Of a DNA stretch of 64,000 bases, positions 3,509 to 43,323 are shown in pieces. The translations under genes and the position numbers were made by a program. Source of the stretch: an uncultured delta proteobacterium (lineage in GTDB: Bacteria > Myxococcota_A > Polyangia > Fen-1088); contig CAWCMR010000005.1 in NCBI GenBank assembly GCA_963796685.1, forward strand, positions 1-64,000, read 5' to 3'. The notes beneath the pieces are model-generated. The model searched no databases and had not been told where the DNA came from. It saw only the letters and a list, made by a program, of their open reading frames with translations. The stretch's first letter is position 1; the number at the start of each line of letters is the position of its first letter.

Positions 3509-4848
3509 GCGCCACGCTTTCGCTCAGCGACCGCACCGCCTACACGGCGGGGTTCGCGCATGCCATCGAGCAGGACACCGGCCTTCCCGCGTGGCTGACC
3601 TCGGTGAGGCGAAGCGCGTTCGACGCATTTCTGGAGCAAGGCTGGCCCACCACCAAGCAAGAGGACTGGCGTTTCACCGACGTCACCCCCATCACGAGGC
3701 TGGCGCTGCTGCCTCCACCCTTCGCCAAGCCACACTTGGCGAAGGACGATTTCGCCGCGGATGTGCTCGGCTTGGGCGGTCACCAGGTCCGGCGCCTGCT
3801 TTTCGTCGACGGCCGCTATCACTCGGGCGCCGCCAACGGACGGCCACTCCCCGACGATCTGTGGATGATTCCCATCTCTTCCGCCCTGGCCGAGGATTCG
3901 GGAACCGTGGGCCAGGTTCTGGGTCACCATCTGCGCGACCAGAACGCCTTCGTGGCCTTGAACATGGCGTTCATGACCGACGGCGCGTTCATTCGCATTC
4001 CAGCAGGATTTGCGTCCGAAGTGCCTATTTACGTCGTCTTCCTGGCTTCCGCCGAGGGCAGCGCCGGGTTCCCGCGCACCGTCATCTGGGCAGGGGAAAA
4101 TAGCCGGGCCACCGTCGTCGAGATCCATCTCGGTGCCGACTCCCGGTCCACATTGGCCAGCGCGGTCACCGAAATCGTGCTCGAACCCGGCGCGCACGTC
4201 GTCCATCACGGCATCCAGAAGGCGTCGCCCGGTGGCGGTCACGTCGGCCACCTCGCCGTGACCCAGAAGACCGGCAGCGTCTTTTCGGGCAGCAGTCTGG
4301 CCTTGGGCGGCCGCATGGTGCGCAACGATGTTCACGTGTTGCTTGCCGAGGAAGGTTGCACCTGCAACCTCGACGGCCTCTACCTCGCATCGGGCTCGGG
4401 CCACATCGACAATCACACGACCATCGATCATCGCGCTGCCCGGTCGACGAGCCGCGAGGTCTACAAGGGCGTGGTCGGAGACCGCAGCCGCGCGGTCTTC
4501 AACGGACGCATCGTGGTCAGGCCCGATGCCCAGCAGACCGACGCACGTCAAACCAATCGCAACATCGTGCTCGGCGAGGGCGCCCTGGTACACAGCAAGC
4601 CGCACCTCGAGATCTTCGCCAATGACGTCAAGTGCTCGCACGGCGCCACCACCGGGCGTCTGAATGCGGACGCCCTGTTCTATCTGCGCTCGCGCGGCAT
4701 CGGCGAGAGGGAAGCCAACCAGCTGCTCATCCGCGCCTTCATGCTGGAGGGTCTCGACTGCATCGCCCAGACCGAGCTGCGCGCGGAGCTGGAAGGCGTG
4801 CTCGTGAAAAAGATCGAGTCTCTCGCCAACCCGGGAGTCGTCGCGTGA
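3505..4848 (+). CDS. sufD: Fe-S cluster assembly protein SufD
   Basis: EDWRFTD, PHLEIFANDVKCSHGAT, LFYLRSRGI; operon position. Confidence 0.95.
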   Translation: MSATLSLSDRTAYTAGFAHAIEQDTGLPAWLTSVRRSAFDAFLEQGWPTTKQEDWRFTDVTPITRLALLPPPFAKPHLAKDDFAADVLGLGGHQVRRLLFVDGRYHSGAANGRPLPDDLWMIPISSALAEDSGTVGQVLGHHLRDQNAFVALNMAFMTDGAFIRIPAGFASEVPIYVVFLASAEGSAGFPRTVIWAGENSRATVVEIHLGADSRSTLASAVTEIVLEPGAHVVHHGIQKASPGGGHVGHLAVTQKTGSVFSGSSLALGGRMVRNDVHVLLAEEGCTCNLDGLYLASGSGHIDNHTTIDHRAARSTSREVYKGVVGDRSRAVFNGRIVVRPDAQQTDARQTNRNIVLGEGALVHSKPHLEIFANDVKCSHGATTGRLNADALFYLRSRGIGEREANQLLIRAFMLEGLDCIAQTELRAELEGVLVKKIESLANPGVVA

Positions 4849-6104
4849 TGGCGACCAAGCACAGAGGCTCCTCCTTGTCGAATAGCCTCGACGTGGAGAG
4901 CGTGCGGCGGGACTTCCCGGCCCTGGCGCAAAAGGTCCACGGCCACCCGCTCGTGTACCTCGACAACGCCGCCACCACGCAGAAACCGAGCGCGGTGCTC
5001 GATCGCATCCACAAGAGTTACATCGAGGAGTGCGCCAACATCCACCGCGGCGTCTACCAGCTGAGCGAGCGTGCGACCGCGGCCCACGAGTCGGCGCGCG
5101 AGACGGTTCGCCGCTTCCTCGGCGCCGAGCAGACCAGCGAGATCGTGTTCGTTCGCGGCGCCACCGAAGGCATCAATTTGGTCGCCCAGAGTTACGGCCG
5201 CAGTCGCATCAGCGCAGGAGACGAGATCCTCGTCACCGCCATGGAGCACCATTCGAACATCGTGCCATGGCAGATGCTGTGCCAGGAGCGCGGTGCGACC
5301 TTGAAGGTCGCGCCCATGGACGACAACGGCGATCTGATCGTCCCCGAGTACGAGAAGCTTCTCGGTGCCCGAACCAAGCTGGTGGCCTTCACCCTGGTCT
5401 CGAACGCGCTCGGCACGGTCAACCCGGCCAAGGCCATGATCGAAGCCGCGCATCGCGCGGGTGCCCAGGTCCTGGTCGACGCGGCCCAGTCCGTCCCCCA
5501 TCGCGCCATCGACGTGCGCGCTCTCGACTGCGATTTTCTCGTCTTTTCGGGCCACAAGCTCTACGGCCCCACCGGCATCGGCGTGCTCTATGGCAAGCAG
5601 CACCTCTTGGAGGCCATGCCGCCCTGGCAAGGCGGTGGCGACATGATCATATCCGTGACCTTCGAGCGGACCACCTACGCGCCACCGCCGGCCAAGTTCG
5701 AGGCCGGCACCCCCGCCATCAACGGCGCCATCGCCCTCGGCGCCGCCATCGAGTATGTCGAGTCGTTCGGCATGGCCGCCATCGAGCGCTACGAGGCCGA
5801 GCTCCTCGCCTACGCGGAAGCGGCCCTGAGCAAGCTCCCTGGGCTGCGACTCATCGGCAAGCCCAAGCACCGGGCCGGCGCTATCTCCTTCATGCTGGGC
5901 GACATCCATCCCCACGACGTGGGGACCGTGCTGGATCGCTATGGGGTCGCCATTCGCGCCGGACACCACTGCGCGCAGCCCACCATGAAGCGCATGGGCG
6001 TGCCGGGCACCGCGCGCGCCTCGTTCGCCTTCTACAACAAGCCCGAAGAAGTCGACACCTTGGTCGCCTGCCTCCTGGAGGCCCAGAAAGTGTTCCGCCA
6101 ATGA
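4848..6104 (+). CDS. sufS: Cysteine desulfurase SufS, the only full-length copy
   Basis: YLDNAATTQKP, FSGHK PLP lysine, RAGHHCAQP catalytic Cys. Confidence 0.95.
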   Translation: MATKHRGSSLSNSLDVESVRRDFPALAQKVHGHPLVYLDNAATTQKPSAVLDRIHKSYIEECANIHRGVYQLSERATAAHESARETVRRFLGAEQTSEIVFVRGATEGINLVAQSYGRSRISAGDEILVTAMEHHSNIVPWQMLCQERGATLKVAPMDDNGDLIVPEYEKLLGARTKLVAFTLVSNALGTVNPAKAMIEAAHRAGAQVLVDAAQSVPHRAIDVRALDCDFLVFSGHKLYGPTGIGVLYGKQHLLEAMPPWQGGGDMIISVTFERTTYAPPPAKFEAGTPAINGAIALGAAIEYVESFGMAAIERYEAELLAYAEAALSKLPGLRLIGKPKHRAGAISFMLGDIHPHDVGTVLDRYGVAIRAGHHCAQPTMKRMGVPGTARASFAFYNKPEEVDTLVACLLEAQKVFRQ

Positions 6105-6580
6105 ACGAGCTTGACGACCTCTATCAGGAAGTGATCCTCGATCACCAGCGCAACCCGCGCAACTACGCCAAGTTGCCCACGGCCAACCACCAGGCCGAGG
6201 GCGCCAATCCCCTGTGCGGCGATCACGTGACCGTGTACCTCGACGTCAAGGACGGCGTCATTCGCGATATCAGCTTCCAAGGCGAAGGCTGCGCCATCGC
6301 CAAGGCGTCGGCGTCCATGATGACGTCGGTGGTGAAGGGAAAGTCCTTGGCCGATGCCTCCGAGACCTTCAAGCGCTTCCACCAGATGATCACCGGCGGC
6401 CAGGATCCCTGTTTCGACCTCGAAGACCTGGGCAAGCTCGCCGCGTTCTCCGGCGTGAGCGCGTTCCCCGTGCGGGTGAAGTGCGCGAGCCTCGCCTGGC
6501 ACACCTTGAACGCCGCCATGCACGAGACCACGACCGCGCCCACCAGCGGCGGCGAGCCCAACAAGGAGCCCCAGAAGTGA
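6101..6580 (+). CDS. sufU: SufU sulfur-transfer/scaffold protein, copy 1
   Basis: LYQEVILDH, NPLCGD, GCAIAKASAS, RVKCASLAW. Confidence 0.93.
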   Translation: MNELDDLYQEVILDHQRNPRNYAKLPTANHQAEGANPLCGDHVTVYLDVKDGVIRDISFQGEGCAIAKASASMMTSVVKGKSLADASETFKRFHQMITGGQDPCFDLEDLGKLAAFSGVSAFPVRVKCASLAWHTLNAAMHETTTAPTSGGEPNKEPQK

Positions 6581-6984
6581 TGGCGACGCCCGAGCCCCAG
6601 CGCGCACCCGACCCGCCATCCGACCCGTCACCCGACCCACCCTCGGGCTCCACCGCCAACGATGCGGCCACCACCCAGTTGGAGCGCCTGGTGTGGCAGG
6701 AGCTGCGCGAGTGTTACGACCCTGAGATCCCCGTCAACATCGTGGAGCTGGGGCTCGTCTACGCCATGCGCTCCGAGCCTCTACCCGAGGGTGGCCACCG
6801 GGTCGAGGTCCTCATGACCGTGACCTCACCCGCCTGTGGCATGTCCGAGATCCTGCGCTCCGAGGCCGACGAACGCATCCGCAAGCTGCCCGGCGTCGCC
6901 CAGGTCGAGGTGGCCATCACCTTCGACCCGCCCTGGACCCCCGAGCTCATGAGCGACGACGCGCGGATGATGCTGAATTTGTGA
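6577..6984 (+). CDS. sufT: SufT/DUF59 Fe-S assembly protein, copy 1
   Basis: YDPEIPVNIVELGLVY, MTVTSPACGM, FDPPWT; start overlaps the sufU stop. Confidence 0.88.
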   Translation: MMATPEPQRAPDPPSDPSPDPPSGSTANDAATTQLERLVWQELRECYDPEIPVNIVELGLVYAMRSEPLPEGGHRVEVLMTVTSPACGMSEILRSEADERIRKLPGVAQVEVAITFDPPWTPELMSDDARMMLNL

Positions 6985-8820
6985 TCAGCCCCTCGGCCTG
7001 GAACGCGCGCACGCGCTCTTCGCGCTCGACCGCCGGTATGGAGCCGTTGAGAGTCAGGGTGCGCAGGCCCGCCCAGGCAAGCAGGGGCGGCAATCGCGCA
7101 ACTTTCATGACTCGCTGACCGACATCCCTCCTTTGTGGAGGCAGCGGCATGCGCACAGCCCGCGTCTGCGGGACCGGTCTATTCACGCCGGCAGCCGGAG
7201 AAGACTGCCTTGTACAGGGTCATGCAGGAACATCTGCTGACCTTCGAGCAGCAGTGGACCGACGAGGCCAATGGCCGGACACTGCCCGGCTTCGTGACCG
7301 ACGAGCTGCACGGATTCATGTCGTGCGGAATCTTGGGGCGAGGCTTCGCACACCTTTTCTGTAAGACCTGCCACGAACACCATGCTGTGGCCTTCAGCTG
7401 CAAGGCCAGAGCCGTATGTCCCAGTTGCTTGGGCAGGCGCATGAACGAGGGGGCGTTGAACCTCACGGATTATGTCCTGCCCGATGTACCTCTGAGGCAG
7501 TTTGTCTTGACCATGCCTTTCCCGCTGCGCTTCCCGCTCGCCTTCGACGGGAAACTGCTCGGTCAAGTGGTGCGCATCTTCACGGATACTGTCGCTGGAT
7601 GGTACCGCAAGCGGCACGTTGAACGCGGCTTGCCTCCTGGCGAAACCGGCGCCGTGACAGTCATCCAGCGCGCCAACAGTGATTTGCGACTCAATCCGCA
7701 TCTTCACACCCTTTTTCTCGACGGTGTGTACTCGCCGGACGGCGATGGCAAGGGCCAGATGTTCCACCCCGCGACAGCACCCACCCAACAGGAAGTCGAG
7801 CAGATCGTCGAGCGCGCCAGCAAACGCATCCTGCGCTTCCTCCAGCGTCGCGGCGTCATCTCCCTCGTCACCGCCCCAGGCGACGGCGAAGTAACCGTCG
7901 TCACCGACGAGACCATGGGCGAGAAAGATCCGCTGTTGGCCAAGCTCTTGGCCGCCGCCACCGCCGGTACACCACCCGCTGGCCCCACCAACAAACGCAG
8001 ACCTGTGCGCATCGTGCTTGACCCCGATGACCAGCCCGTCGCCAAGGGCAAGTTGTGCGCGCAAGAACACGGGTTCAACCTGCATGGAGCGACCAGGGTC
8101 GCTGCCAACGACAAGCAGGGCCGGTTAACCCTGTGCAAATACATCCTCCGCCCGCCTCTCGCCAACGACAGGCTCAAGATCCTCGACGATGGAACCGTGA
8201 GGCTGGAGCTGAAGAAGGCGTGGTCCGACGGCACTACGTCGGTGGAACTGGCTCCACTGGCCCTCATCGCGCGTCTCGCTGCGCTCGTCCCGCCCCCCAA
8301 GCGCCATACCGTTAGATATTTTGGTGTACTTTCGTCGCACGCCACCTCACGTAGCGAGGTGGTTCCCTCACCCGTCGAGCCGGCGTCCCCCGCGCAGGAC
8401 AAGCCCAAGAACACTTCGAGGTATATTTCTTGGTCCGAACTTTTGCGCCGCACCTTCGGGTTCGAAATCGCCTGCCAGAAATGTAAGGCCCCGCTCCGCC
8501 TGATCGCACTCATCAAGAGCGAGGACATCGCCAAGAAGATCCTGACCGCGATGCACCTGCCAACGGAGATCCCGGAGCTACGCCCAGCGCGCCCGCCGCC
8601 CCTGAAGGCGGGTGGCAGCGCTGACTGGCTGAACTGAACACGACCTCTCCGGGGCTGTGATGGGGTGGACTACGCCTTGTGATTGAGACAGCCTGTTCGG
8701 CACCCGAATCGCGCCATCAAACCCGCTCCGTAGGGCACTCCAGGCGCACGCGAGGGTGTGGTGGCACAGGGCGGCACGGGTTTTCGGACCGGAAATACCC
8801 CCTTCGATTCGCTTATGCAC
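6985..8820 (+). mobile_element. IS91-family/ISCR-like rolling-circle element, full-length copy; left boundary uncertain
   Basis: Contains the HUH transposase; the right end is defined by four copies that diverge exactly after TTCGATTCGCTTATGCAC. Confidence 0.85.
7135..8637 (+). CDS. IS91/ISCR-family HUH transposase (500 aa)
   Basis: Zn-binding CKTC...FSCKARAVCPSC, HUH motif NPHLH, single-Tyr LCKYILRPP, VRYFGVL, C-terminal CQKCKAPLRLIA. Confidence 0.93.
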   Translation: MEAAACAQPASAGPVYSRRQPEKTALYRVMQEHLLTFEQQWTDEANGRTLPGFVTDELHGFMSCGILGRGFAHLFCKTCHEHHAVAFSCKARAVCPSCLGRRMNEGALNLTDYVLPDVPLRQFVLTMPFPLRFPLAFDGKLLGQVVRIFTDTVAGWYRKRHVERGLPPGETGAVTVIQRANSDLRLNPHLHTLFLDGVYSPDGDGKGQMFHPATAPTQQEVEQIVERASKRILRFLQRRGVISLVTAPGDGEVTVVTDETMGEKDPLLAKLLAAATAGTPPAGPTNKRRPVRIVLDPDDQPVAKGKLCAQEHGFNLHGATRVAANDKQGRLTLCKYILRPPLANDRLKILDDGTVRLELKKAWSDGTTSVELAPLALIARLAALVPPPKRHTVRYFGVLSSHATSRSEVVPSPVEPASPAQDKPKNTSRYISWSELLRRTFGFEIACQKCKAPLRLIALIKSEDIAKKILTAMHLPTEIPELRPARPPPLKAGGSADWLN

Positions 8821-9096
8821 TGCCCAGATGTGTCCCCCATGGGGACCGGCGTCGTGCTGGCGTCCGCAGGCATAGCCCCAACCGGCCGAAACAGTGTTCG
8901 TTGGAACGAGTGCATCGGGGGAGGAAGCCCGGCTAGTCACCGAGCTCAATGGGAATCCCATCTTGGCGGATAGACCAACCCCCCAAACAACTACATGCGG
9001 CATGGGGGCCGGGGGCATTGGTGGAAGCGAATTATGAATATCAACCCCGACAATCGGTTGAATCGTATTCAAGCAAGGATACGGAATACCTGGCAT
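8821..9096 (-). pseudogene. 3'-truncated copy of the PAAR-like gene, cut at the ISCR right end
   Basis: Matches the 5' part of 31760-32587 and stops at the TATGCAC junction. Confidence 0.8.
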
Positions 9097-9112
9097 TTTG
9101 TGCCTTCCTTCT

Positions 9113-10087
9113 TCACGCCAATTCCCCAACCTCGGACAGCGTGGCTTGACGTGTCTGTTCCGATTGGAACTGATAGCTGAAGTTGGCCCGGTTTGTAATG
9201 ACGACCTTACGTACATCCGACCATATGTAGACACCGTCGATTCGGCTCTCGACATCGACCGTCTTCCCCGAAGTATTGACTTCAAGACCAAGACGGACGG
9301 ATGGAAGGGTAATGGCCAGTGGCTTTTCATCCAGTCCCTGAACGGCGATGGTCTCAGACGGTGCAACTTTGTCTACGACGAGCTTTGGATGGGCGTTGTT
9401 GAACAGAAGTGGTGAAACCGACTGGATCGACTTCCTGTCGGCGGCAATCTTGATCGCTTCCTGCGCTCGCAAGCCCCAAATCATCGGGTATGGAGCAAAC
9501 CCTGCGACAGGCTGGCGATCCGACCATTGGTAGTTTTCGGAGGAGGCGGCATCTTCTATGTTCGGAAGCTGGTGGTCTACCGCCTGCTCGGCTTCCAGAT
9601 AGAAGCCGATGCCCCATGGATTCTCAGGATGAGGGGCCTGATATCCAGCAAAGTCCGCCGAACCGCCATATGCACGCTTATAGGAAAGCGGCATTTCAGT
9701 GAATGGAGTGGGCGCCGTCGGTGACAATGCCGTCGCCGCGCGTCCCGTCTTCTTCCATGTACGGTCCCCGAGAACCCGCAATTCTCGGACAATCGATCCG
9801 ATCGTGATTGAGACACGCGCCCTGGTCACAGGACGCAGTCGACGGATGGTTCCTAAAACCGCGACATCGGCGCCTTTCTTGCGGATGAAATGATCCCCGT
9901 GGAAGATTCCATAGGGAGTCTCCAGAAAATCTGGAGAAAGGGGCAATGGCTCGTCTGCGGGCCTCAGATGGCCGTCCTCGACGATGTCATATGTCCTCTT
10001 GACAATAACAACAGCAGAGAGAGCCTCAGTTTGAAGGTTCGCGACCTGGAGGATCGCTGGCCATCTTGTTCTATTGACGAGGCGCAT
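9113..10087 (-). CDS. DUF2169 family T6SS effector adaptor
   Basis: VKRTYDI, KKGADV, LRVLGDRTW, MPLSYKRAYGG, NPWGIGF, LPNIED, FNNAHP. Confidence 0.85.
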   Translation of the reverse strand: MRLVNRTRWPAILQVANLQTEALSAVVIVKRTYDIVEDGHLRPADEPLPLSPDFLETPYGIFHGDHFIRKKGADVAVLGTIRRLRPVTRARVSITIGSIVRELRVLGDRTWKKTGRAATALSPTAPTPFTEMPLSYKRAYGGSADFAGYQAPHPENPWGIGFYLEAEQAVDHQLPNIEDAASSENYQWSDRQPVAGFAPYPMIWGLRAQEAIKIAADRKSIQSVSPLLFNNAHPKLVVDKVAPSETIAVQGLDEKPLAITLPSVRLGLEVNTSGKTVDVESRIDGVYIWSDVRKVVITNRANFSYQFQSEQTRQATLSEVGELA

Positions 10088-10093
10088 GGAGAG

Positions 10094-10735
10094 TCATGGC
10101 TTGAGGTTAATTTCATCAACCAGCGAAGCATCCCCCGAAACGGTTTCTGCGGGCAACAATCGCGGCACCACATCTAGGGAGGGAGGAAGACCATCGGTCA
10201 CCCAGGAAGGAATGGCGGACGGGCGATCGCAATTGAGCAGGATAGATTCGCCCAACAACTGCACATCGTCGTTGGCGCTAACCCGAATTCCGCCTAGTTT
10301 GGCATCGATCGCCAAACTCTTCGCCTCTATTCGTGCTGCTTCCGCAGAGCGTTGCACAAAGGTCCCGCCGGACACAAGCTCTACCTTCTCTCTCGCCTCC
10401 ACGAGGAATTCGTCACAGCGAATACCCACACGACGCGCGGCCTCGACCTCGATTGATGATCCCTTCACCGACACGACTGGTCCCGTGGCATCAAGCCGTA
10501 TTTCAAAGGATAGCTCCGTGGCGCCCGTGGCGGAAGATATTGTCACAACTGCCTGTTCCGACGTCGCCTGAACCGTCAAAGTACGCCCCTGCCTCATTGC
10601 CAGAACGGCCCTTCCGGGGTCGAGGCGTTGTTCAGGGATACATTCGACTGGTGGAGATGACATCGTTGACTCTTCACGGTACAAACCCATCCTGGGCGTG
10701 TCAAGGAGGGATATAGCGCCATCATCCCTCGACAA
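10094..10735 (-). CDS. Hypothetical T6SS-associated protein with beta-strand repeats resembling a spike C-terminus
   Basis: Alternating pattern SIEVEAARRVGIRCDEFLVEA...VQLLGESILLN; adjacent to DUF2169. Confidence 0.5.
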   Translation of the reverse strand: MSRDDGAISLLDTPRMGLYREESTMSSPPVECIPEQRLDPGRAVLAMRQGRTLTVQATSEQAVVTISSATGATELSFEIRLDATGPVVSVKGSSIEVEAARRVGIRCDEFLVEAREKVELVSGGTFVQRSAEAARIEAKSLAIDAKLGGIRVSANDDVQLLGESILLNCDRPSAIPSWVTDGLPPSLDVVPRLLPAETVSGDASLVDEINLKP

Positions 10736-10849
10736 GCGCAGCGACGTCGCGGGGCGCCGAGCCGAAGGCCGCGGTGGCGACCCGCTCTACGTACTCGACA
10801 AAGTTCCGGGGGTCTGGCATGAGGAGTGCCTGAAGAACCCGACGAAAGA

Positions 10850-11251
10850 GCCGGCACGCCCGCCATCAACGGCGCCATCGCCCTTGGCGCCGCCATCGAC
10901 TACGTCGAATCGTTCGGCATGGCGGCCATCGAGCGCTACGAGGCCGAGCTTCTCGCCTACGCGGAAGCGGCCTTGAGCAAGCTCCCCGGCCTGCGCCTCA
11001 TCGGCAAACCCAAGCACCGGGCCGGCGCCATCTCCTTCATGCTGGGCGACATCCATCCCCACGACCTCGGGACCGTGCTGGATCGCTATGGCGTCGCCAT
11101 TCGCGCCGGACACCACTGCGCGCAGCCCACCATGAAACGCATGGGCGTGCCGGGAACCGCGCGCGCCTCGTTCGCCTTCTACAACAAGCCCGAAGAGGTC
11201 GACACCTTGGTCGACTGCCTCACGGAGGCCCAGAAAGTGTTCCACCCATGA
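10850..11251 (+). pseudogene. sufS: 5'-truncated sufS, copy 2 (from native position 5703)
   Basis: Homology to native sufS starts abruptly at GCCGGCAC. Confidence 0.92.
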
Positions 11252-11727
11252 ACGAGCTCGACGAGCTCTACCAGGAAGTGATCCTCGATCACCAGCGCAA
11301 CCCGCGCAACTACGCCAAGTTGCCCACGGCCAACCACCAGGCCGAGGGCGCCAATCCCCTGTGCGGCGATCACGTCACCGTGTACCTCGACGTCAAGGAC
11401 GGGGTCATCCGCGACATCAGCTTCCAAGGCGAGGGCTGCGCCATCGCCAAGGCCTCGGCGTCCATGATGACCTCGGTGGTGAAGGGAAAGTCCCTGGCCG
11501 ACGCCTCCGAGACCTTCAAGCGCTTTCACCAAATGATCACCGGCGGCCAGGATCCCTGCTTCGATCTCGAAGACCTGGGCAAGCTCGCCGCCTTCTCCGG
11601 CGTGAGCGCGTTCCCCGTGCGGGTCAAGTGCGCGAGCCTCGCCTGGCACACCTTGAACGCCGCCATGCACGAGACCACGACCGCGCCCACCAGCGGCGGC
11701 GAGCCCAACAAGGAGCCCCAGAAGTGA
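11248..11727 (+). CDS. sufU: SufU copy 2
   Basis: Intact 159-aa ORF nearly identical to copy 1. Confidence 0.9.
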   Translation: MNELDELYQEVILDHQRNPRNYAKLPTANHQAEGANPLCGDHVTVYLDVKDGVIRDISFQGEGCAIAKASASMMTSVVKGKSLADASETFKRFHQMITGGQDPCFDLEDLGKLAAFSGVSAFPVRVKCASLAWHTLNAAMHETTTAPTSGGEPNKEPQK

Positions 11728-12131
11728 CGGCGACGCCCGATTCCCAGCGCGCACCCGACCCATCATCCGACCCGTCACCCGACCCACCCTCGGGCTCCAC
11801 CGCCAACGATGCGGCCACCGCCCAGTTGGAGCGCCTGGTGTGGCAGGAGCTGCGCGAGTGCTACGACCCGGAGATCCCCGTCAACATCGTGGAGCTGGGG
11901 CTCGTGTACGCCATGCGCTCCGAGCCCCTGCCCGAGGGCGGCCACCGGGTCGAGGTCCTCATGACCGTGACCTCACCCGCCTGTGGCATGTCCGAGATCC
12001 TGCGCTCGGAGGCCGACGCGCGCATCCGCAAGCTGCCCGGCGTCGCCCAGGTCGAGGTGGCCATCACCTTCGACCCGCCCTGGACCCCCGAGCTCATGAG
12101 CGACGACGCGCGGATGATGCTGAATTTGTGA
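11724..12131 (+). CDS. sufT: SufT copy 2
   Basis: Intact ORF with GTG start. Confidence 0.85.
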   Translation: MTATPDSQRAPDPSSDPSPDPPSGSTANDAATAQLERLVWQELRECYDPEIPVNIVELGLVYAMRSEPLPEGGHRVEVLMTVTSPACGMSEILRSEADARIRKLPGVAQVEVAITFDPPWTPELMSDDARMMLNL

Positions 12132-34433: not shown

Positions 34434-34909
34434 ACGAGCTCGACCAGCTCTACCAGGAAGTGATCCTCGATCACCAGCGCAACCCGCGCAACTACGCCAA
34501 GTTGCCCACGGCCAACCACCAGGCCGAGGGCGCCAATCCCCTGTGCGGCGATCACGTCACCGTGTACCTCGACGTCAAGGACGGGGTCATCCGCGACATC
34601 AGCTTCCAAGGCGAGGGCTGCGCCATCGCCAAGGCCTCGGCGTCCATGATGACCTCGGTGGTGAAGGGAAAGTCCCTGGCCGACGCCTCCGAGACCTTCA
34701 AGCGCTTCCACCAGATGATCACCGGCGGCCAAGACCCCTGCTTCGACCTCGAAGACCTGGGCAAGCTCGCCGCCTTCTCCGGCGTGAGCGCGTTCCCCGT
34801 GCGGGTCAAGTGCGCAAGCCTGGCCTGGCACACCTTGAACGCGGCCATGCACGAAACCACGCCTCCCCCGCCCGCCGGAGGCGAGCCCAACAAGGAGCCC
34901 CAGAAGTGA
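34430..34909 (+). CDS. sufU: SufU copy 4
   Basis: Intact 159-aa ORF. Confidence 0.9.
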   Translation: MNELDQLYQEVILDHQRNPRNYAKLPTANHQAEGANPLCGDHVTVYLDVKDGVIRDISFQGEGCAIAKASASMMTSVVKGKSLADASETFKRFHQMITGGQDPCFDLEDLGKLAAFSGVSAFPVRVKCASLAWHTLNAAMHETTPPPPAGGEPNKEPQK

Positions 34910-35301
34910 CGGCGACGCCCAATCCCCAGCCCGCACCCGCCCCATCACCCGATCCGCCATCGGGCTCCACGGCCAACGATGCGGCCACCGCCCAGTTGGA
35001 GCGCCTGGTGTGGCAGGAGCTGCGCGAGTGCTACGACCCGGAGATCCCCGTCAACATCGTGGAGCTGGGGCTCGTGTATGCCATGCGCTCCGAGCCCCTG
35101 CCCGAGGGCGGCCACCGGGTCGAGGTCCTCATGACCGTGACCTCACCCGCCTGTGGCATGTCCGAGATCCTGCGCTCGGAGGCCGACGCGCGCATCCGCA
35201 AGCTGCCCGGCGTCGCCCAGGTCGAGGTGGCCATCACCTTCGACCCGCCCTGGACCCCCGAGCTCATGAGCGACGACGCGCGGATGATGCTGAATTTGTG
35301 A
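34906..35301 (+). CDS. sufT: SufT copy 4
   Basis: Intact ORF. Confidence 0.85.
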   Translation: MTATPNPQPAPAPSPDPPSGSTANDAATAQLERLVWQELRECYDPEIPVNIVELGLVYAMRSEPLPEGGHRVEVLMTVTSPACGMSEILRSEADARIRKLPGVAQVEVAITFDPPWTPELMSDDARMMLNL

Positions 35302-36165
35302 CCAGCCCCTCGGCCTGGAACGCGCGCACGCGCTCTTCGCGCTCGACCTCCGGTATGGAGCCGTTGAGAGTCAGGGTGCGCAGGCCCGCCCAGGCAAGCA
35401 GGGGGCGGCAATCGCGCAACTTTCATGACTCGCTGACCGACATCCCTCCTTTGTGGAGGCAGCGGCATGCGCACAGCCCGCGTCTGCGGGACCGGTCTAT
35501 TCACGCCGGCAGCCGGAGAAGACTGCCTTGTACAGGGTCATGCAGGAACATCTGCTGACCTTCGAGCAGCAGTGGACCGACGAGGCCAATGGCCGGACAC
35601 TGCCCGGCTTCGTGACCGACGAGCTGCACGGATTCATGTCGTGCGGAATCTTGGGGCGAGGCTTCGCACACCTTTTCTGTAAGACCTGCCACGAACAGCG
35701 AGGTGGTTCCCTCACCCGTCGAGCCGGCGTCCCCCGCGCAGGACAAGCCCAAGAACACTTCGAGGTATATTTCTTGGTCCGAACTTTTGCGCCGCACCTT
35801 CGGGTTCGAAATCGCCTGCCAGAAATGTAAGGCCCCGCTCCGCCTGATCGCACTCATCAAGAGCGAGGACATCGCCAAGAAGATCCTGACCGCGATGCAC
35901 CTGCCAACGGAGATCCCGGAGCTACGCCCAGCGCGCCCGCCGCCCCTGAAGGCGGGTGGCAGCGCTGACTGGCTGAACTGAACACGACCTCTCCGGGGCT
36001 GTGATGGGGTGGACTACGCCTTGTGATTGAGACAGCCCGTTCGGCACCCGAATCGCGCCATCAAACCCGCTCCGTAGGGCACTCCAGGCGCACGCGAGGG
36101 TGTGGTGGCACAGGGCGGCACGGGTTTTCGGACCGGAAATCCCCCCCTTCGATTCGCTTATGCAC
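35302..36165 (+). mobile_element. Non-autonomous ISCR derivative with the same 974-bp deletion as copy 2
   Basis: ACGAAC|AGCGAGG junction at about 35696; ends TATGCAC. Confidence 0.88.
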
Positions 36166-36524
36166 CGCCTGCCGACTTGTCCGCAAGCACCGCCCCCGCA
36201 CCTCCGCCCCCGAGCACCCCCACGCCACCTGCGTTCACCAAGCCATCCAAGCCGCCCCCTTCTGGCACAAGGTGTCGGTACATCAGATGGGCCCAGCTTC
36301 TACGTCTGACGTTCGGGTTGACGGTCGACGAGTGTCCTGCATGTGGGGGCCGGATGAAACTGCGCGCTCTCGTTCGCGACCCCGAAAGCATCGAGCACTT
36401 CTTGCGCCACCAAGGCATCTGGTCGCCACCACAAGACATTGCGCCAGCGCGTGCGCCGCCCTACCACCGCAAGGTGACCCGCCTTTCGCCGACACGCCAG
36501 CAAGATCTCTTCCCCGAGACATGA
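36166..36524 (+). pseudogene. C-terminal fragment of a different IS91-family transposase
   Basis: RYIRWAQLLRLTFG...CPACGGRMKLRA...PARAPP parallels the tail of 7135-8637. Confidence 0.8.
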
Positions 36525-36843
36525 GCTTGGCCCGGCCTGCACGACAAGCGGCGCCCGGCTACCGGGCGTAGCCTGCCCTGCCGACGCCAAAGGCAATCTG
36601 GCTTACACACACGTTCCACCCCAATCAGCCAAATCCGCCCAGCCGCTCTCCCGTGGCCCCGGCGAACCCAATGCCCACGACCGGCTGACCCGGCCACCAG
36701 ATCTTCATTAATGCGATGTGCAACGGCTCAAATCGATTACGGACAGCACAGTGACAATCGTCAGCATCGCTTGACTTTGATAGTGTTCTTTAGCCACGCT
36801 TGGCCTTCAAGCGACTACCCTTGAACCGACGATAGGAGAAGCT

Positions 36844-37308
36844 ATGCATCGACCTCAATTTACGCAAGCCTGGGCTTCGTTTCAGACCGTTCTCGGAAAT
36901 GGCACGGTGGCAGCTGTCGGGAATCTTATTGGTGGCAAGGTGAAGGCGAATATCGATGCGAAGATCTTCACCAACGCCTGCGCCCTGCGAATGAGCTACG
37001 TCTTAAATCGAACAGGTGTGCGCATTCATCCGCACGCGAACCAGACTGTTTCCGGCGGCGACCACGATCACTACTACTTTCGCGTAAAGGATCTGCTTGA
37101 GTTTCTGCGCCGCACCTTTGGCAAGCCCGACGCCATTCTTCCTGGTTCCAACACGACGGCCCTGACCAGGAAGAAGGGACTACTCGTTTTTGAAGTCGCA
37201 GTTTGGCGGGACGCTACCGGCCATGCAACCTTGTGGGATGGTGTCTCTTGCTCGGACCATTGTTACTTTCTTGAGGCAAAACATCTCCTGTTTTGGGCCT
37301 TGTCATGA
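36844..37308 (+). CDS. T6SS peptidoglycan amidase effector, Tae4 family
   Basis: NACALRMSYVLN catalytic Cys and WRDATGHATLWDG His motif; RBS GGAG. Confidence 0.88.
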   Translation: MHRPQFTQAWASFQTVLGNGTVAAVGNLIGGKVKANIDAKIFTNACALRMSYVLNRTGVRIHPHANQTVSGGDHDHYYFRVKDLLEFLRRTFGKPDAILPGSNTTALTRKKGLLVFEVAVWRDATGHATLWDGVSCSDHCYFLEAKHLLFWALS

Positions 37309-37679
37309 TGCGTGTTTTCGTCGGAACGATTGCTCTTCTGCTTGCCCGGCCAGCCGTGCCTGCCGATAGTTCCAAGCCTGAGGTGCCCAAGTATTCACAG
37401 GTGGAGCTGCTCAAGAATTACGCGACAGCGAGATGCCTAAGCCGAGCTTTTCCTGGCTCGGTCCTCGAACCTGATGCGGCCGCAAGTGCCGCCGGATACC
37501 TGGAACGAGGATCGGTAAGCGCCGATGCCTATGTCGAGATCGCAAAGCTTGCCGATACGTTCTTGGCGCGGAAATATCCCAGCCAGTCAGGCCAACCCTT
37601 GCAGACGATGAAATGCATCGATCTGTTTCAGAGCAAGGATCTGAACCTCGTCGTCAAACGGTTCGCGGGGAAGCGATAA
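37305..37679 (+). CDS. Amidase immunity protein, Tai4 family
   Basis: Signal peptide, LLKNYATARCL, DAAASAAGYLE, MKCIDLFQS; overlaps the tae4 stop. Confidence 0.85.
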   Translation: MMRVFVGTIALLLARPAVPADSSKPEVPKYSQVELLKNYATARCLSRAFPGSVLEPDAAASAAGYLERGSVSADAYVEIAKLADTFLARKYPSQSGQPLQTMKCIDLFQSKDLNLVVKRFAGKR

Positions 37680-38059
37680 CGAGACGATCTTCGGCCTCAG
37701 GACGTGTGATGGAGTCTCTTTCTGGCTGACGGTGGTGATTCCGGCGCATGCGGAGGTCGTCAATCGACGAGCCGGACCATGTGTCCGCCGCAAGAACTCG
37801 GTACAGGTCGAATCGACGCCAGCCTTCATCGGGATTGACCGGGTGGTTGCCCAAGATCGGGTTGCAGCGAGGGTTGGGCAGCGCCACCATGGGGTCAAGG
37901 TGCGCCTGGATCTTGTGTGCGAACGCGCGAGAGCCGGCTGGGGACACACGAATCGCGTGCTACATACCTTGCACGAGCTGTGCTGCTGCGGTCGTCTCAG
38001 GCGACCCGCGCGTAGTACTCGTGATGTAGCCCACCGAGGACTGGTCGAGAAACAACGTC

Positions 38060-38996
38060 CTTGGGTGGAACCCGTCGCACGGGCGGCAACCAACGCGCGC
38101 CCGCTGGGGGTTCGTCGGCGGGCTGGTCTTGCTCCTCGGCGGTGCCGCGTCGCTGGTGGCAGCCGGCACGGTCAAGGTCAAGATGTTGCCCTTCGACAAC
38201 AAGGCCGAGTTTCAGGTTCAACTGGACATGCCCGCGGGAACGCCCCGTGAAGATGCTTTCGTCGTGGGCCAGGCTCTGGCGCGCCGGGTGTTGGAAGAGC
38301 CCGAGGTGCTGGATGTCCAGGTCTACGCCGGCGTGGCCGCGCCCTTCACGTTCGTGGGCATGGTTCGCCACAGCTTCTTCAGGGACGCGCCCGAGCAGGT
38401 CGATCTGCAAGTCAACCTGGTGCCCAAGGGCAAGCGCAAGGCGCAAAGCCGCGCCATCGTCATGCGTCTGCGGCCGGCGCTGGAGGCGATTGCCGGCGCC
38501 AAGGGCGGCCGGCTCAAGCTGGTCGAGATTCCGCCCGGCCCGCCCGTGCTCGATACCCTGGTCGCCGAGATCTACGGACCGAGTGTGGCAGAGCGCGATC
38601 GCCTGGCGCGCGAGACGCTGGCGGCCTTTCGCTCCACCGCGGGTGTGGTCGACATCGATTCGACCTTGAACCCGACAACACCCAAAATTTCCATCGACAT
38701 CGATCACGAGAAGTCGGCCCTGCACGGGGTGGCACCGGCGGCGGTGGTGCAGACCCTGGCCGCGGCCGGGTACGGCGCGCAACACGGGCTCTTCCACGGC
38801 GGGCATGGCGCCAATCAGATCCCCATCATCCTGCAGCTTGCGCCGGCCCAGCGCAGCCGCATCGATCAATTGCTGCAACTGACGGTGCCCGGGGTTCGCG
38901 GTCCGGTCCCACTATCCGAGCTGGTGCACTCCACCACCGGATTCGCCGATCCCGACATCTTTCACAAGAACCTGATGCCCGTGTCGTATGTCTTCG
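38060..38996 (+). pseudogene. Internal fragment of an AcrB/RND permease
   Basis: VKMLPFDNKAEFQV, PPGPPVLDTLVAEIYGP, IFHKNLMPVSYV; both ends missing. Confidence 0.82.
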
Positions 38997-39038
38997 GCGG
39001 CCTGCGCCGCGGAAGCCAGCTCGGCGCCTCGCAGCTCC

Positions 39039-39121
39039 CTCCAGGCACGTGCGAGGGTGCGGTGGCGCCGGGAGGCATCGGTTCTCGGACCGGAATTGCC
39101 CCCTTCGATTTGGCCATGCTC
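39039..39121 (+). mobile_element. Diverged orphan ISCR right end
   Basis: CTCCAGGC...CGAGGGTGCGGTGGC...TCGGACCGGAA..CCCCTTCGATTTGGCCATGCTC aligns with 8738-8820. Confidence 0.75.
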
Positions 39122-39484
39122 ATGCGCTCAACCGACGAGGACGCCAGCGCGCGAAAGACCAAGCCAGATGGTTGCAGAACGCCGCGGTCAGAGCCTTTGA
39201 TGCCCTTGGAGCGCAGTCGTTCAAGCAGGCGATAGACGGTCCTAACTCACCGTCCAAGCGCCGTGGCCCCGGCCTCGACACCCAGTCGACGAGCCTCAAC
39301 CTGTCTGAGAATCCCGATGCGTTGCATTTCCTTCATGGTCAGTACCAACTTCTCGTCTGGTCCCATGGACCACGACAGTAGTGACATTTTTACTCGGCAG
39401 TTGGACTGACAGATTCATTCGGCTGCCATGGGGACCACGACGCTCACGCCAAAATATTGGAAACTGTGTATGCTACACACTGTC

Positions 39485-40201
39485 ATGCCTGTGTGCGGCA
39501 TCCTCTTCGACATCGGCGACACCCTCCTCGCCGCAACTCTCCTCCAAGAGCAAGCCTTGCGCGAGGCCAGCCACGCACTCGAGATGGCGGGGCTTGTCCC
39601 TGATAGCGAAAGCCTTCGCCTGGCGTATTCAAGTGCGGACCAGGAGGCCGGCTTTCAGGATCTCCCTGACCTCAACCACCTCTATGCCGACCCTCGCGTC
39701 TTCGAAAGAGCGTGCGGCTCACTCGGTTGGCAGAACAGTGACGCCCTGACCTGGGAATTCCTTACCATCCATCGAAACCAGGTACGGAAGTGCATCCGCC
39801 CCAATCCCGAGCATATCGAAAGCATTCAGCGACTTGCCTCGAGAGGCTTCCGCCTCGGAGTCGTTTCCAACGGCACAACGGTTGAGCAACAGGAGCAGCT
39901 TCGTCTTCTGGAGCTCGACCAGTTCTTCTCGCCGATAGTTGTTTCCCAACAAGCGGGCATCAGGAAGCCGACTCCGGCCATTTTCCACCTGGCGATACGA
40001 GATTGGGGGATCCCGGCTTCGCAGATCTTGATGGTGGGTGACCGTCCCGACATCGACATACTCGGCGCTAAGCGCGCCGGAATGAAAGCCGCATTAACTT
40101 GGGAATTCGTGTCCCACCCCACAGAGATGATCCCAGTTCTGCCCGACTGCCTGGTCGCCAGTATCGCCGAACTAGCCAGACGCCTGGAGGCTCTACCGTG
40201 A
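39485..40201 (+). CDS. HAD-superfamily hydrolase
   Basis: LFDIGDTL, VVSNG, RKP, MVGDRPDIDILGA. Confidence 0.88.
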   Translation: MPVCGILFDIGDTLLAATLLQEQALREASHALEMAGLVPDSESLRLAYSSADQEAGFQDLPDLNHLYADPRVFERACGSLGWQNSDALTWEFLTIHRNQVRKCIRPNPEHIESIQRLASRGFRLGVVSNGTTVEQQEQLRLLELDQFFSPIVVSQQAGIRKPTPAIFHLAIRDWGIPASQILMVGDRPDIDILGAKRAGMKAALTWEFVSHPTEMIPVLPDCLVASIAELARRLEALP

Positions 40202-41599
40202 GTGCACAGCATCACCTATGCCGAAGAGAATCTCCTCGAGTTTCTCCAGAATCACGACATACCCGCGACGGAAGCAGCAGCATACGCGGTTACCTTGTGC
40301 CGAGGATACGCCACGTCGCGCCAATCCCTGCGCGACATCCTAGATATCTTCCTTCCGGCGCGCGAGGACAATGACGAGTCGGAAATCGCGAAGCATCTTG
40401 ATCACCTGCTTCAAATCGGCTTGTTGCAGGCGAGACGGCTCCCGGATGGCGAAGTCATCTCGGCCGCACATCCATGGCAACAAGCGCTTCATAAGGCCCT
40501 ACACCTTACAGACGGCTTGGATCGCGTGCTGGTCAGGACAGTTGAAGACAGCCGCAGATCATTCCAAGCAAAGTCACCACGAGAACTTCGCCTAATCGAA
40601 CGACTTGGCTCCGCCTCGTCTCCCCCTTCAGAGAAAGCACTTCAGCGTGCCATCATGGATGCCAGAAGCAGGTTACGCCTTGGCGTCTACTCCTCTCAGG
40701 GCTTGTTCCATACTGTCAGTCCCATTGTTCGACGGTCGCTGATTGACAACAAGGCTTTCGACGTTCAAATACTGATGTTTTCACCCGAGCTCGCGGCATC
40801 TATAGAGAAGAACGGGAACCTTGCTCGCCACGTTGAGAATCGCACAGCCGCGTGGCTGCAGCTCTTCGAGGGCGCCCGAAAAGAAGCCGAAGGTCGCGGG
40901 AACAAGCCTAGAATGGAGATTCGTTGGATTGACAATCCGCGGTTGATCGCTTTTCACCGTACTGTTCTCATCGATGAAGACGTATGGTTCTATGCGATCC
41001 ACCGTGTCGGAAAGGAGAGAGGCATCGATGCTGTTCTCTATCGCGGAACAGAGGGTGAGAGCAATATCTATAAGATGCTCGACTTCTATTGGCAGACAGC
41101 ATGGGCCGCTGCTCGACCGACTGTTTCGAGTGGCCGGCCCAGGCTATTCATCGGCTCTTCTTCAGAAGCCCTTCCGACTGCCCGCGCCCTGTGCGAAGCT
41201 TTGGAACGAGATGCAGAGACGACACTTTGGGACGATGGCATCTTTGAGCCTTCACTGACGCCGCTCGAATCGTTGGTGAAGAAGCTCGATGACTTCGACT
41301 TTGCCGTCCTGGTGGCGAGCGGTGATGACTCAACGGTCTCACGGGGTATTGCTGCGCCTTCCCCACGCGACAATGTTCTCCTTGAGCTCGGTATGTTCAT
41401 CGCTAAACTCGGACGTCATCGCACCTTTGTTGTGTCGAAGCGTGAGCCACATGCGAAGTTCCCCTCCGATTTGGCTGGTGTCGAGATTGTCACCTTCGAA
41501 GAGCGACAATACCAGAACCCCAAGGCGCAAGTCGCAGCCGCTAGCAACCGAATCCGAACCGCAATGTCCACCCTGGGGCCCATCAGGTCAGGGCGATAA
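40202..41599 (+). CDS. Protein with an uncharacterised N-terminal region and a C-terminal CAP12/Pycsar-type TIR domain
   Basis: [30 protein letters not shown]...LG, PSDLAG. Confidence 0.82.
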
Positions 41600-41752
41600 T
41601 GCCTTCGCGCGAACGAACCTCGGAACCGAGGCGCATTCTGATTCTCGGTGGTGCGGGGTTTGTCGGGTCGCACCTCTGTGCGGATCTTCTCTCCGAAGGA
41701 CATAAGGTTGCGGTCTTTGACAACCTAAGCAGTGGCCGGCGAGACCGCCTGG
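41599..41752 (+). pseudogene. NAD-dependent epimerase 5' fragment cut by sufS copy 5
   Basis: [14 protein letters not shown]...FDNLSSG followed by an abrupt switch to sufS sequence. Confidence 0.85.
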
Positions 41753-42098
41753 CGAGTCGTTCGGCATGGCGGCCATCGAGCGCTACGAGGCCGAGCTTCT
41801 CGCCTACGCGGAAGCGGCCTTGACCAAGGTCCCCGGCCTGCGCCTCATCGGCAAACCCAAGCACCGGGCCGGCGCCATCTCCTTCATGCTGGGCGACATC
41901 CATCCCCACGACCTCGGGACCGTGCTGGATCGCTATGGCGTCGCCATTCGCGCCGGACACCACTGCGCCCAGCCCACCATGAAACGCATGGGCGTGCCGG
42001 GAACCGCGCGCGCCTCGTTCGCCTTCTACAACAAGCCCGAAGAGGTCGACACCTTGGTCGACTGCCTCGTCGAGGCCCAGAAAGTGTTCCGCCAATGA
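41753..42098 (+). pseudogene. sufS: 5'-truncated sufS, copy 5 (from native position 5759)
   Basis: Homology begins at CGAGTCGTTCGG. Confidence 0.92.
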
Positions 42099-42574
42099 GC
42101 GAGCTCGACGACCTCTATCAGGAAGTGATCCTCGATCACCAGCGCAACCCGCGCAACTACGCCAAGTTGCCCACGGCCAACCACCAGGCCGAGGGCGCCA
42201 ATCCCCTGTGCGGCGATCACGTCACCGTATACCTCGACGTCAAGGACGGGGTCATCCGCGACATCAGCTTCCAAGGCGAGGGCTGCGCCATCGCCAAGGC
42301 CTCGGCGTCCATGATGACGTCGGTGGTGAAGGGAAAGTCCTTGGCCGACGCCTCCGAGACCTTCAAGCGCTTTCACCAAATGATCACCGGCGGCCAGGAT
42401 CCCTGCTTCGATCTCGAAGACCTGGGCAAGCTCGCCGCCTTCTCCGGCGTGAGCGCGTTCCCCGTGCGGGTCAAGTGCGCGAGCCTCGCCTGGCACACCT
42501 TGAACGCCGCCATGCACGAGACCACGACCGCGCCCACCAGCAGCGGCGAGCCCAACAAGGAGCCCCAGAAGTGA
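42095..42574 (+). CDS. sufU: SufU copy 5
   Basis: Intact ORF MSELDDLYQE... Confidence 0.9.
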   Translation: MSELDDLYQEVILDHQRNPRNYAKLPTANHQAEGANPLCGDHVTVYLDVKDGVIRDISFQGEGCAIAKASASMMTSVVKGKSLADASETFKRFHQMITGGQDPCFDLEDLGKLAAFSGVSAFPVRVKCASLAWHTLNAAMHETTTAPTSSGEPNKEPQK

Positions 42575-42978
42575 CGGCGACGCCCGATCCCCAGCGCGCA
42601 CCCGACCCGCCATCCGACCCGTCACCCGACCCACCCTCGGGCTCCACCGCCAACGATGCGGCCACCACCCAGTTGGAGCGCCTGGTGTGGCAGGAGCTGC
42701 GCGAGTGTTACGACCCTGAGATCCCCGTCAACATCGTGGAGCTGGGGCTCGTGTACGCCATGCGCTCCGAGCCTCTGCCCGAGGGCGGCCACCGGGTCGA
42801 GGTCCTCATGACCGTGACCTCCCCTGCCTGTGGCATGTCCGAGATCCTGCGCTCCGAGGCCGACGAACGCATCCGCAAGCTGCCCGGCGTCGCCCAGGTC
42901 GAGGTGGCCATCACCTTCGACCCGCCCTGGCCCCCCGAGCTCATGAGCGACGACGCGCGCATGATGCTGAATTTGTGA
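42571..42978 (+). CDS. sufT: SufT copy 5
   Basis: Intact ORF; DPPWP replaces DPPWT. Confidence 0.85.
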   Translation: MTATPDPQRAPDPPSDPSPDPPSGSTANDAATTQLERLVWQELRECYDPEIPVNIVELGLVYAMRSEPLPEGGHRVEVLMTVTSPACGMSEILRSEADERIRKLPGVAQVEVAITFDPPWPPELMSDDARMMLNL

Positions 42979-43034
42979 TTGGGGAGAGCGCAGAGGGCGG
43001 AGGAGGACGCGGAGGGCGGAGAAGCTCGGGAGGG

Positions 43035-43323
43035 TCTGGCCGACTCCTCAAAGGGACATTCGAGACCGACACGATCTGCCCTCGCTGCAAGAGCCCTCTC
43101 CGCCTCATCGCCACGATCGAGACCGAGGACACCATCAAAAAGATTCTCTCTGCCATGGGGCTACCCAGTGAGGGGCCCAAACTTTGGCCCCCACGATCGG
43201 CCGCCTTCCGGGGCGCCTCCCGTTGCCATTTGGGCATCGCCTTGGAGTGCGGAGGTCGATCCGCCCATGTTCGAGGTGCCACATCCCGCGTCCCGCTTCA
43301 TCGGTCGAAAGCGGCCCATGCTC
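43035..43323 (+). pseudogene. Degenerate C-terminal remnant of a related IS91/ISCR transposase with a possible eroded right end
   Basis: RLLKGTFE...CPRCKSPLRLIATIETEDTIKKILSAMGLP; ends near GGCCCATGCTC. Confidence 0.75.

Follow-up and report, generated by a model that had tools for sequence, protein, structure and literature searches.

The ISCR elements are held responsible for the assembly of resistance regions in clinical plasmids, and the account of complex class 1 integrons in PMC3575428 describes an order in which unrelated genes lie after oriIS and a second, incomplete copy of the conserved segment comes next, every part having the same orientation. This layout (conserved segment, ISCR, unrelated genes, partial duplicate) was present in the three plasmid loci that we examined. 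Here we describe a chromosomal array of comparable layout from an uncultured soil member of the Myxococcota, in which the repeated segment is the 3' part of the suf operon. It begins in the window analyzed here, i.e. the first 64 kb of the 425-kb contig C5 of a metagenome-assembled genome (MAG; G000) of 7.3 Mb in 26 contigs, with a completeness of 88.6% and a contamination of 6.5%. We hold it probable, though far from assured, that an accretion island arose in this chromosome behind sufT through the action of ISCR-type rolling-circle elements (IS91-family, HUH), with re-entry at suf by homologous recombination.

Several described systems offer points of comparison. For IS91, IS801 and IS1294 the relevant parts of PMC13181058 give distinct oriIS and terIS ends, the absence of a target duplication, the carriage of upstream DNA upon failure of termination, and circular intermediates; these parts and those of PMC5737581 relate fixed right ends and variable left ends in the IS91 family to termination failure at terIS. 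In Sphingobium herbicidovorans MH the corresponding sections of PMC5737581 report IS91-mediated catabolic clusters with imperfect repeats, an observed 11-kb circle and an oriIS situated 167 bp downstream of the gene. The present array resembles that system in its environmental, non-resistance setting and in the distance of oriIS (here 183 and 175 bp), but the Sphingobium system is plasmid-borne, has few copies and does not use a fragment of a housekeeping operon as its repeat. A further likeness is to the islands that tyrosine integrases build by accretion at tRNA genes: in both cases the insertion lies at the 3' end of a conserved gene that is left intact, with a displaced partial copy at the far end and elements in tandem. 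It differs from these in the absence of an integrase among the open reading frames (ORFs) scanned and in repeats that range from 84 bp to 1.8 kb with variable left ends, in place of short fixed att sites.

The closest parallel remains the complex class 1 integrons linked to ISCR1, with which the locus shares an ISCR-type HUH transposase directly downstream of the conserved segment, the transposases being 36% identical. In contrast to these integrons, the place of qacEdelta1/sul1 as conserved segment is taken here by the 3' part of an operon for Fe-S assembly on the chromosome, the proteins scanned lack an integrase domain, and the host is an uncultured soil Myxococcota. There are, moreover, five suf repeats and a second, 12-copy array on another contig (C9), and the cargo consists of ordinary accessory genes and not of resistance genes. 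A Pfam scan of 69 window and island proteins, of which 48 are island ORFs, recovered no Sul1 or QacE domains, attC sites not having been specifically searched for. The structure is neither an integron nor an island of the integrase type.

An array of suf copies and ISCR-type units

The suf operon stands near the start of the window, with the only complete set of its genes and the only intact transposase directly behind them:

1476-2732, + strand: sufB (Pfam SUFBD_core)
about 2729-3508, + strand: sufC (Pfam ABC_tran)
3505-4848, + strand: sufD (Pfam SUFBD_core)
4848-6984, + strand: suf copy 1, complete
4848-6104, + strand: sufS of copy 1 (Pfam Aminotran_5)
6101-6580, + strand: sufU of copy 1 (Pfam NifU_N)
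6577-6984, + strand: sufT of copy 1 (Pfam FeS_assembly_P)
6985-8820, + strand: full-length ISCR element of the window type, the sole one in the genome (Pfam, NCBIfam and comparison with ISCR1), with a terminus identical in four copies
7135-8637, + strand: gene of the 500-aa transposase (Pfam Y2_Tnp and Zn_Tnp_IS91)
8798-8820, + strand: constant right (oriIS-like) end, the same in four copies

To the right of this element units of partial suf copies and ISCR-type sequence alternate with segments of other DNA:

8821-10849: segment A, fragment of a DUF2169 gene; duplicates the end of segment C, apart from a 305-bp indel at 10074-10378
10850-13003, + strand: unit 2, 'sufS-sufU-sufT and an ISCR with a 973-bp internal deletion; right end at 12995
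10850-12131, + strand: suf copy 2, starting at the equivalent of 5703
13004-24870: segment B, cluster of sugar-nucleotide and glycosyltransferase genes
24871-27101, + strand: unit 3, 'sufS-sufU-sufT and only the last 399 bp of an ISCR; right end at 27101
24871-26702, + strand: suf copy 3, starting at the equivalent of 5160
27102-34031: segment C, HTH transposase, DDE_5 insertion sequence and pieces of DUF2169 genes
34032-36165, + strand: unit 4, with the architecture and deletion of unit 2; right end at 36165
34032-35301, + strand: suf copy 4, starting at the equivalent of 5703
36166-36744, + strand: 3' part of an ISCR of a third type, up to its own oriIS-like terminus, with a weak match to the transposase C-terminus
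36745-39121, + strand: segment D1, Tae4 amidase, acrB-like fragment and a solo oriIS-like end
39122-41749: segment D2, HAD hydrolase and TIR-domain protein
41750-43205, + strand: unit 5, 'sufS-sufU-sufT to 42979, then a spacer and ISCR remnant of the C9 type
about 41750-42979, + strand: suf copy 5, starting at the equivalent of about 5756
43206-64000, and on to C5:83,473 outside the window: segment E, accessory genes

A preliminary description of this DNA, made without database searches, had proposed a suf-anchored array of sufS-U-T, ISCR and cargo units in direct orientation with a single complete sufS, and self-BLAST, a repeat search, Pfam and tblastn confirm this; its cargo coordinates hold to within a few bases, and the one intact and several deleted ISCR-type transposase genes that it listed were recovered, three being internally deleted (units 2-4). 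Other parts need correction. Cargo A is not a separate cargo, as 8821-10073 corresponds to 32312-33565 at 99.8% identity in self-BLAST, and segment A repeats the final 1.7 kb of segment C. Further, the cargos are themselves layered; cargo D holds additional ISCR ends at 36744 and 39121. Nor does the array end at 43323: copy 5 is followed by a deleted ISCR of the C9 type at 42980-43205, and the island reaches C5:83,473. This tail of unit 5 comprises a 65-bp C9-type spacer (42980-43044) and a 162-bp 3' remnant of a C9-type ISCR (43044-43205), the right end of which has been lost.

The transposase of the intact element matched Y2_Tnp with 100.2 bits (cutoff 20.9) and Zn_Tnp_IS91 with 54.5 bits (cutoff 26.3). 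It also aligned end to end with the NCBIfam model ISCR_clade_Ia (E 6.7e-87); as the score of 292 bits misses the curated cutoff of 925 bits, and this is an 'exception'-type model tuned to close relatives, the protein is best placed as a distant member of the ISCR group outside clade Ia. The canonical NCBIfam IS91 equivalog model scored 98.6 bits, under its cutoff of 125, and the element further departs from IS91 proper in that no orf121-like gene was seen and neither CTTG nor GTTC follows its ends. In tblastn searches against plasmids the protein showed about 35% identity to ISCR1 over 95% of its length and about 34% to ISVsa3, while BLASTP against the ISCR1 protein gave 36% identity over the whole length (E 4e-94), with the HUH-type motif and the single-tyrosine motif aligned. 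Judged by these protein comparisons, the element is a distant new member of the ISCR group with a transposase of the HUH/Y2_Tnp type.

The two ends of the units behave differently. Window-type right ends fall on the same exact base at 8820, 12995, 27101 and 36165, with a fifth example at C9:49459, and the right-end segment of the ISCR is repeated at 12527-12996, 26703-27101 and 35697-36165 with at least 99% identity. The left ends of the window-type units vary (equivalents of 5160, 5703, about 5756, 6289 and 6896), and that of the intact ISCR was located between 6985 and about 7093. Two distinct internal deletions of the ISCR are present: units 2 and 4 lack the equivalent of 7380-8352, and unit 3 lacks that of 7007-8421. 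The array on C9, which occupies C9:6,000-131,000, contains a 71%-identical ISCR paralogue in 12 full-length copies that lie on the same strand between 7 and 131 kb, and it has 13 identical right ends and left ends at no fewer than 10 different points. The combination of a fixed right end with a variable left end thus extends across 17 copies (4 of the window type and 13 of the C9 type, on C5 and C9), a pattern that reads as the signature of one-ended rolling-circle transposition. With the ISCR1 terminus derived empirically as the point at which two plasmid copies diverge, the distance from the stop codon to the terminus is 232 bp in ISCR1, as compared with 183 bp in the window type and 175 bp in the C9 type; the termini of both latter types end in a short motif resembling that of ISCR1. 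Where unit 2 meets segment B (12996-13003), the terminus shows a tandem repeat of its final 8 bases, and a plasmid copy of ISCR1 (L113) likewise has a partial repeat of its own terminus just past its end.

Under the favored explanation, replication would begin at the fixed right (oriIS) end and proceed leftwards across the transposase gene, and frequent failure to stop at the left end would lead to the copying of the 3' part of suf and, later, also of DNA further to the left. The resulting products, each made up of captured DNA, 'suf and ISCR, would come to be stacked head to tail in a single orientation. Their entry at the chromosomal suf would take the form of a Campbell-type single crossover in which the suf (or ISCR) segment being carried recombines with its resident counterpart; after each addition the operon to the left would be complete and the suf copy to the right partial. 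This is the logic put forward for ISCR1 and the duplicated 3' conserved segment (3'-CS) of complex class 1 integrons. The rescue step by homologous recombination in the ISCR1 model is reportedly that of Toleman et al. 2006. Capture by read-through is well supported and re-entry at suf by homologous recombination is supported indirectly, while we infer circular intermediates, RecA dependence, present-day activity, and an order of events in which the newest additions lie on the left, beside the only intact transposase. The transposase gene lies 150 bp behind sufT in the same orientation, and a consensus scan of 6800-9000 detected neither a promoter-like site nor a + strand terminator between the two; the transposase could hence be co-expressed with the stress-induced suf operon.

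Borders of the island and history of the suf copies

Genus-level comparisons covered 13 genomes including the source, and the 12 relatives were searched with the individual segments. In all four relatives examined for synteny (G010, G001, G004 and G007) sufT directly abuts the homologue of C5:83,565-89,000, the single-copy part of the operon (sufB-sufC-sufD, 1476-4848) keeps its synteny, and the upstream flank matches the start of C5 and contig C4. Accordingly, about 76.5 kb (C5:6985-83,473) has been inserted between sufT and its native neighbor; the island runs past the end of the window, which holds only part of it. On the right an 84-bp native sufT tail (C5:83,474-83,557), 91.7% identical to 6896-6979, is followed by the native flank. 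The borders are therefore in register with suf: the left one is formed by a complete sufT, the right one by the sufT tail and the native flank that follows it. A single crossover of a carried suf piece with the resident operon can yield such borders, whereas a transposase acting without target duplication cannot. The preliminary description had supposed that circles re-integrate at suf, and the in-register borders of the island, an insertion relative to all four relatives, are what Campbell-type integration would predict; the suf mosaics described below are further evidence of homologous recombination.

Segments of the island were found in the 12 relatives only as scattered patches of 65-99% identity. 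It had been suggested that relatives be checked for the cargos as one contiguous block, merely interrupted by suf-ISCR insertions; searches of these genomes with segment B and with segments C-D found no contiguous A-B-C-D block.

The five direct suf copies in the window, recovered by self-BLAST and the repeat search, are 93.9-97.6% identical in pairs and, being non-identical, are easily distinguished. By tblastn a whole sufS is present in copy 1 only and sufU is full length in all five copies, while the alignment of sufT begins only at residue 23 or 26 in copies 3 and 4 but covers the full length in the other three (copies 1, 2 and 5). The differences are mainly synonymous (17 synonymous against 1 non-synonymous codons and 22 against 5 in sufU; 13 against 3 in the truncated sufS), which argues that the copies diverged as working genes in different lineages before their capture and are not local duplicates. 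In the four-gamete test 246 of 1275 informative site pairs fail. Mismatches also cluster along the copies: over five successive segments they number 13, 11, 9, 1 and 2 between contig C4 and copy 5, and 0, 1, 7, 19 and 1 between copies 2 and 4. On these site patterns the suf copies are recombination mosaics. Simple tandem duplication was considered as the main process and set aside, given that the segments are unrelated except for A and the tail of C, and that the suf copies differ mainly at synonymous sites.

A further feature bearing on re-entry is that the tail of segment C and the adjoining unit 4 recur, over 4.2 kb, as segment A and unit 2, and that this second copy is joined to the oriIS end of the only intact element. 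A duplicate at the terminus of the intact element is the outcome expected from integration of a circle through ISCR or suf homology.

The array could alternatively have been assembled elsewhere, for instance in a C9-like region of another strain or on a plasmid, and then brought into suf in one or a few large homologous-recombination events, in place of stepwise growth at the locus. C9 does carry a larger array with suf remnants, the suf copies stem from several lineages, and the window-type oriIS end at C9:49459 together with the C9-type remnant in the window implies that material has moved between arrays. On the other hand, no plasmid, conjugation or integrase genes were seen among the island ORFs scanned, and the duplication of segment A and unit 2 with respect to the tail of C and unit 4 (99.8% in the cargo part), beside the only intact transposase, looks recent and local. 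We consider wholesale import of this kind improbable.

Related arrays in the genome and the genus

Linkage of suf and ISCR was observed in 3 of the 13 genus genomes. G004 carries on its contig C12 a 1.56-kb unit, 96-97% identical, in which 'sufU (from the equivalent of 6289) and sufT are followed by the ISCR with its deletion and terminus as in the window, although the suf of G004 itself is only 76% identical; the left end of this unit abuts the terminus of another ISCR. In G002 (contig C38) a 135-bp sufT tail is joined to a remnant of a C9-type ISCR. On these identities, suf pieces form part of the mobile unit and have moved between species. The proposal that the HUH transposase co-mobilises the 3' end of suf is thereby supported by the G004 unit and the G002 remnant, while suf does not hold as a required anchor, given the C9 array and a cluster in G001. 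In the latter (G001:C7:66,409-119,935; L114-L117) four copies of a related 2,034-bp ISCR, which agree in both their left and their right ends, lie in a single orientation inside a stretch of 55 kb; one of them is interrupted by about 3.3 kb of other DNA.

On C9 a rearranged remnant of suf, with about 92% identity to the suf of the window, lies ahead of most copies. No native anchor was identified for this array, and C9:130-170 kb is still patchy accessory DNA. A search for an empty site of a minimal C9 unit found none: three relatives are syntenic over the 4.5 kb to the left of the unit, but past its right side the synteny is not taken up again, which fits units made up of captured DNA and ISCR.

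The G001 cluster also bears on an explanation that dispenses with homologous recombination, i.e. serial one-ended transposition in which the transposase itself inserts each 'suf-ISCR product, whether or not further upstream DNA is attached, beside a resident oriIS end or at a local hotspot, the common orientation reflecting a strand or target preference. As noted in the sections of PMC13181058 concerned, members of the IS91 family insert next to a target tetranucleotide adjacent to oriIS and give one-ended products in 1-10% of events. The four precise copies of G001 share one orientation without suf, the suf-ISCR unit of G004 abuts the oriIS end of another ISCR, and an 8-bp tandem repeat lies at the terminus 12995, all of which serial one-ended events would accommodate. 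They would leave unexplained, however, the in-register sufT borders with the native flank and the mosaic structure of the suf copies; the right ends are, in addition, without a conserved tetranucleotide and no empty site was found. We therefore rate serial one-ended transposition as unlikely, albeit the strongest of the competing accounts.

The assembly itself might be at fault, in that units of different loci or strains could have been joined through the 1.2-2.6-kb repeats to give an unreal tandem order. Contamination of the source MAG stands at 6.5%, and several of its contig ends are near-duplicates of one another. One such contig, C4 (11.2 kb), comprises the native upstream flank, sufBCDSUT and the start of an ISCR, is 98.6% identical to C5:1-7378, and ends at the exact base where full and deleted ISCR copies diverge. 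C4 and copy 1 of C5 are near-identical over 2000-5500, with mismatches concentrated at 0-1750 and 5750-7000, the latter being the repeated part; C4 may represent a second haplotype or an additional upstream copy. Public short-read runs also leave the cargo uncovered: the best of them contain 24-26% of the sampled words, with patchy cover of 10.8-13.5 kb and none of segments A or B. Against such misjoining, the repeats diverge by 3-6% and, being truncated and deleted at different points, are hard to confuse, unique junctions are present (e.g. 8820|8821), synteny in four relatives bears out the outer boundaries, and the element ends and the suf-ISCR linkage recur in other genomes and in short-read contigs. 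Among the latter, contigs from four soil runs of one study, possibly from the same campaign as the MAG and hence not fully independent, show the terminus 12995/12996 followed by at least three different sequences, and one contig covers the 3' part of sufT, the spacer and a full-length ISCR. An artefact of assembly or binning seems very improbable.

Homology-driven accretion at suf nevertheless has several observations weighing against it. The parts of PMC13393415 that deal with the question state that ISCR transposition has never been proven experimentally. The founding right-hand repeat is only 84 bp long and 91.7% identical to copy 1. The C9 array has only degenerate suf remnants with no working suf operon attached, and the G001 cluster lacks suf, so that clustering and orientation by themselves need no suf homology and could follow, for instance, from target or strand preference. 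Of 78 loci in other genomes that encode relatives of the transposase, none had suf in the flanking DNA retrieved (at most 6 kb per side, and less where contigs were short). A search for a conserved tetranucleotide after the right ends found none (no CTTG or GTTC), and the last 95-120 nt of the termini, folded on both strands, were no better than shuffled sequences (z -0.45 to +0.49), which speaks neither for hairpins nor against them. Finally, the near-duplicate contig pairs in the MAG (C4/C5, C19/C23 and C24/C18) indicate strain heterogeneity, and the order of the array thus rests on a single assembly.

The segments between the units and their implications

The segments between the units are of diverse content. 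Segment B codes for HAD, SIS, NTP transferase, epimerase, transaldolase-like, amine oxidase, GT2, LPG_synthase_TM and PMT_2 proteins; a partial homologue is present in G010 at a different locus, and a fragment in G002 starts at exactly 13004, so that this segment boundary acts as a terminus. In segment C the DDE_5 insertion sequence (29663-31081), of which a 99% copy is found at C22:125,772-127,243, sits between DUF2169 pieces and probably interrupts a DUF2169 gene. The fragment of the third ISCR type at 36166-36744 is 92.6% identical to G001:C6:469780-470358, with homology stopping at the same base in both. Segment D1, probably the decayed remains of a capture unit belonging to a fourth ISCR type, contains the following:

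36844-37308: Tae4 amidase gene (Pfam)
38099-39009: acrB-like gene fragment
39099-39121, + strand: solo oriIS-like end, following the acrB-like fragment

The acrB-like fragment is 94% identical to a gene at G000:C6:131,337-133,175 that adjoins a transposase remnant, and looks like a second host gene captured by read-through. A 1.5-kb piece with the Tae4 gene (36324-37837), which belongs to a family of type VI amidase effectors, is 99.3% identical in G002 (contig C15), a degree of similarity that points to a very recent transfer. In segment D2 a 465-residue protein with a TIR domain of the CAP12/Pycsar type is encoded at 40202-41599 beside a HAD hydrolase, and might be the product of an island-borne anti-phage defence gene.

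Segment E includes genes for MFS, Ser/Thr kinases, GH5 cellulase, FIST, a hybrid kinase, PLD, transketolase, a methyltransferase, oxidoreductases and others, and a 190-bp repeat at 46847-47037 has copies of 91-93% on C10 and C15. Integrase, recombinase, replication, partition and conjugation domains were absent from the ORFs scanned, though small or unscanned ORFs could escape such a scan. For segment E an origin from a plasmid or an integrative and conjugative element was rejected, as replication, partition, conjugation and integrase domains were lacking among its scanned ORFs. The expectation that capture proceeds without an integrase agrees with the absence of an integrase domain among the 48 island ORFs.

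The preliminary description also knew of no suf-anchored system, and full-text searches, outside whose scope lay supplements and subscription journals, found neither a suf-linked ISCR array nor ISCR arrays in Myxococcota. What is new here is the host lineage, the use of a housekeeping-operon fragment as the common region, the chromosomal site directly behind a working operon, and the scale. In layout and probable mechanism the array matches ISCR1-linked class 1 integrons (PMC3575428) as well as the one-ended capture by IS91-type elements in environmental plasmids (PMC5737581).

The locus and the 12-copy array of C9 provide a natural record, from a non-clinical soil lineage, of elements with one exact end and many other ends. 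Fragments of host genes (suf and the acrB-like piece) have been carried between species, and the outer borders are in register with the host operon. The logic of the 'common region' is therefore not special to the 3'-CS of class 1 integrons, and the presence of one intact and several deleted elements makes the locus tractable for testing read-through, circle formation and homology-dependent re-entry. More tentatively, and with doubt outweighing confidence, the carried suf fragment might serve as a portable homology arm, by which read-through circles home through RecA-type recombination to the suf of related hosts, rebuild the operon and add their load beside an active transposase. If this were true, the portable suf arm would constitute a recombinase-free, integron-like acquisition platform on a housekeeping operon.

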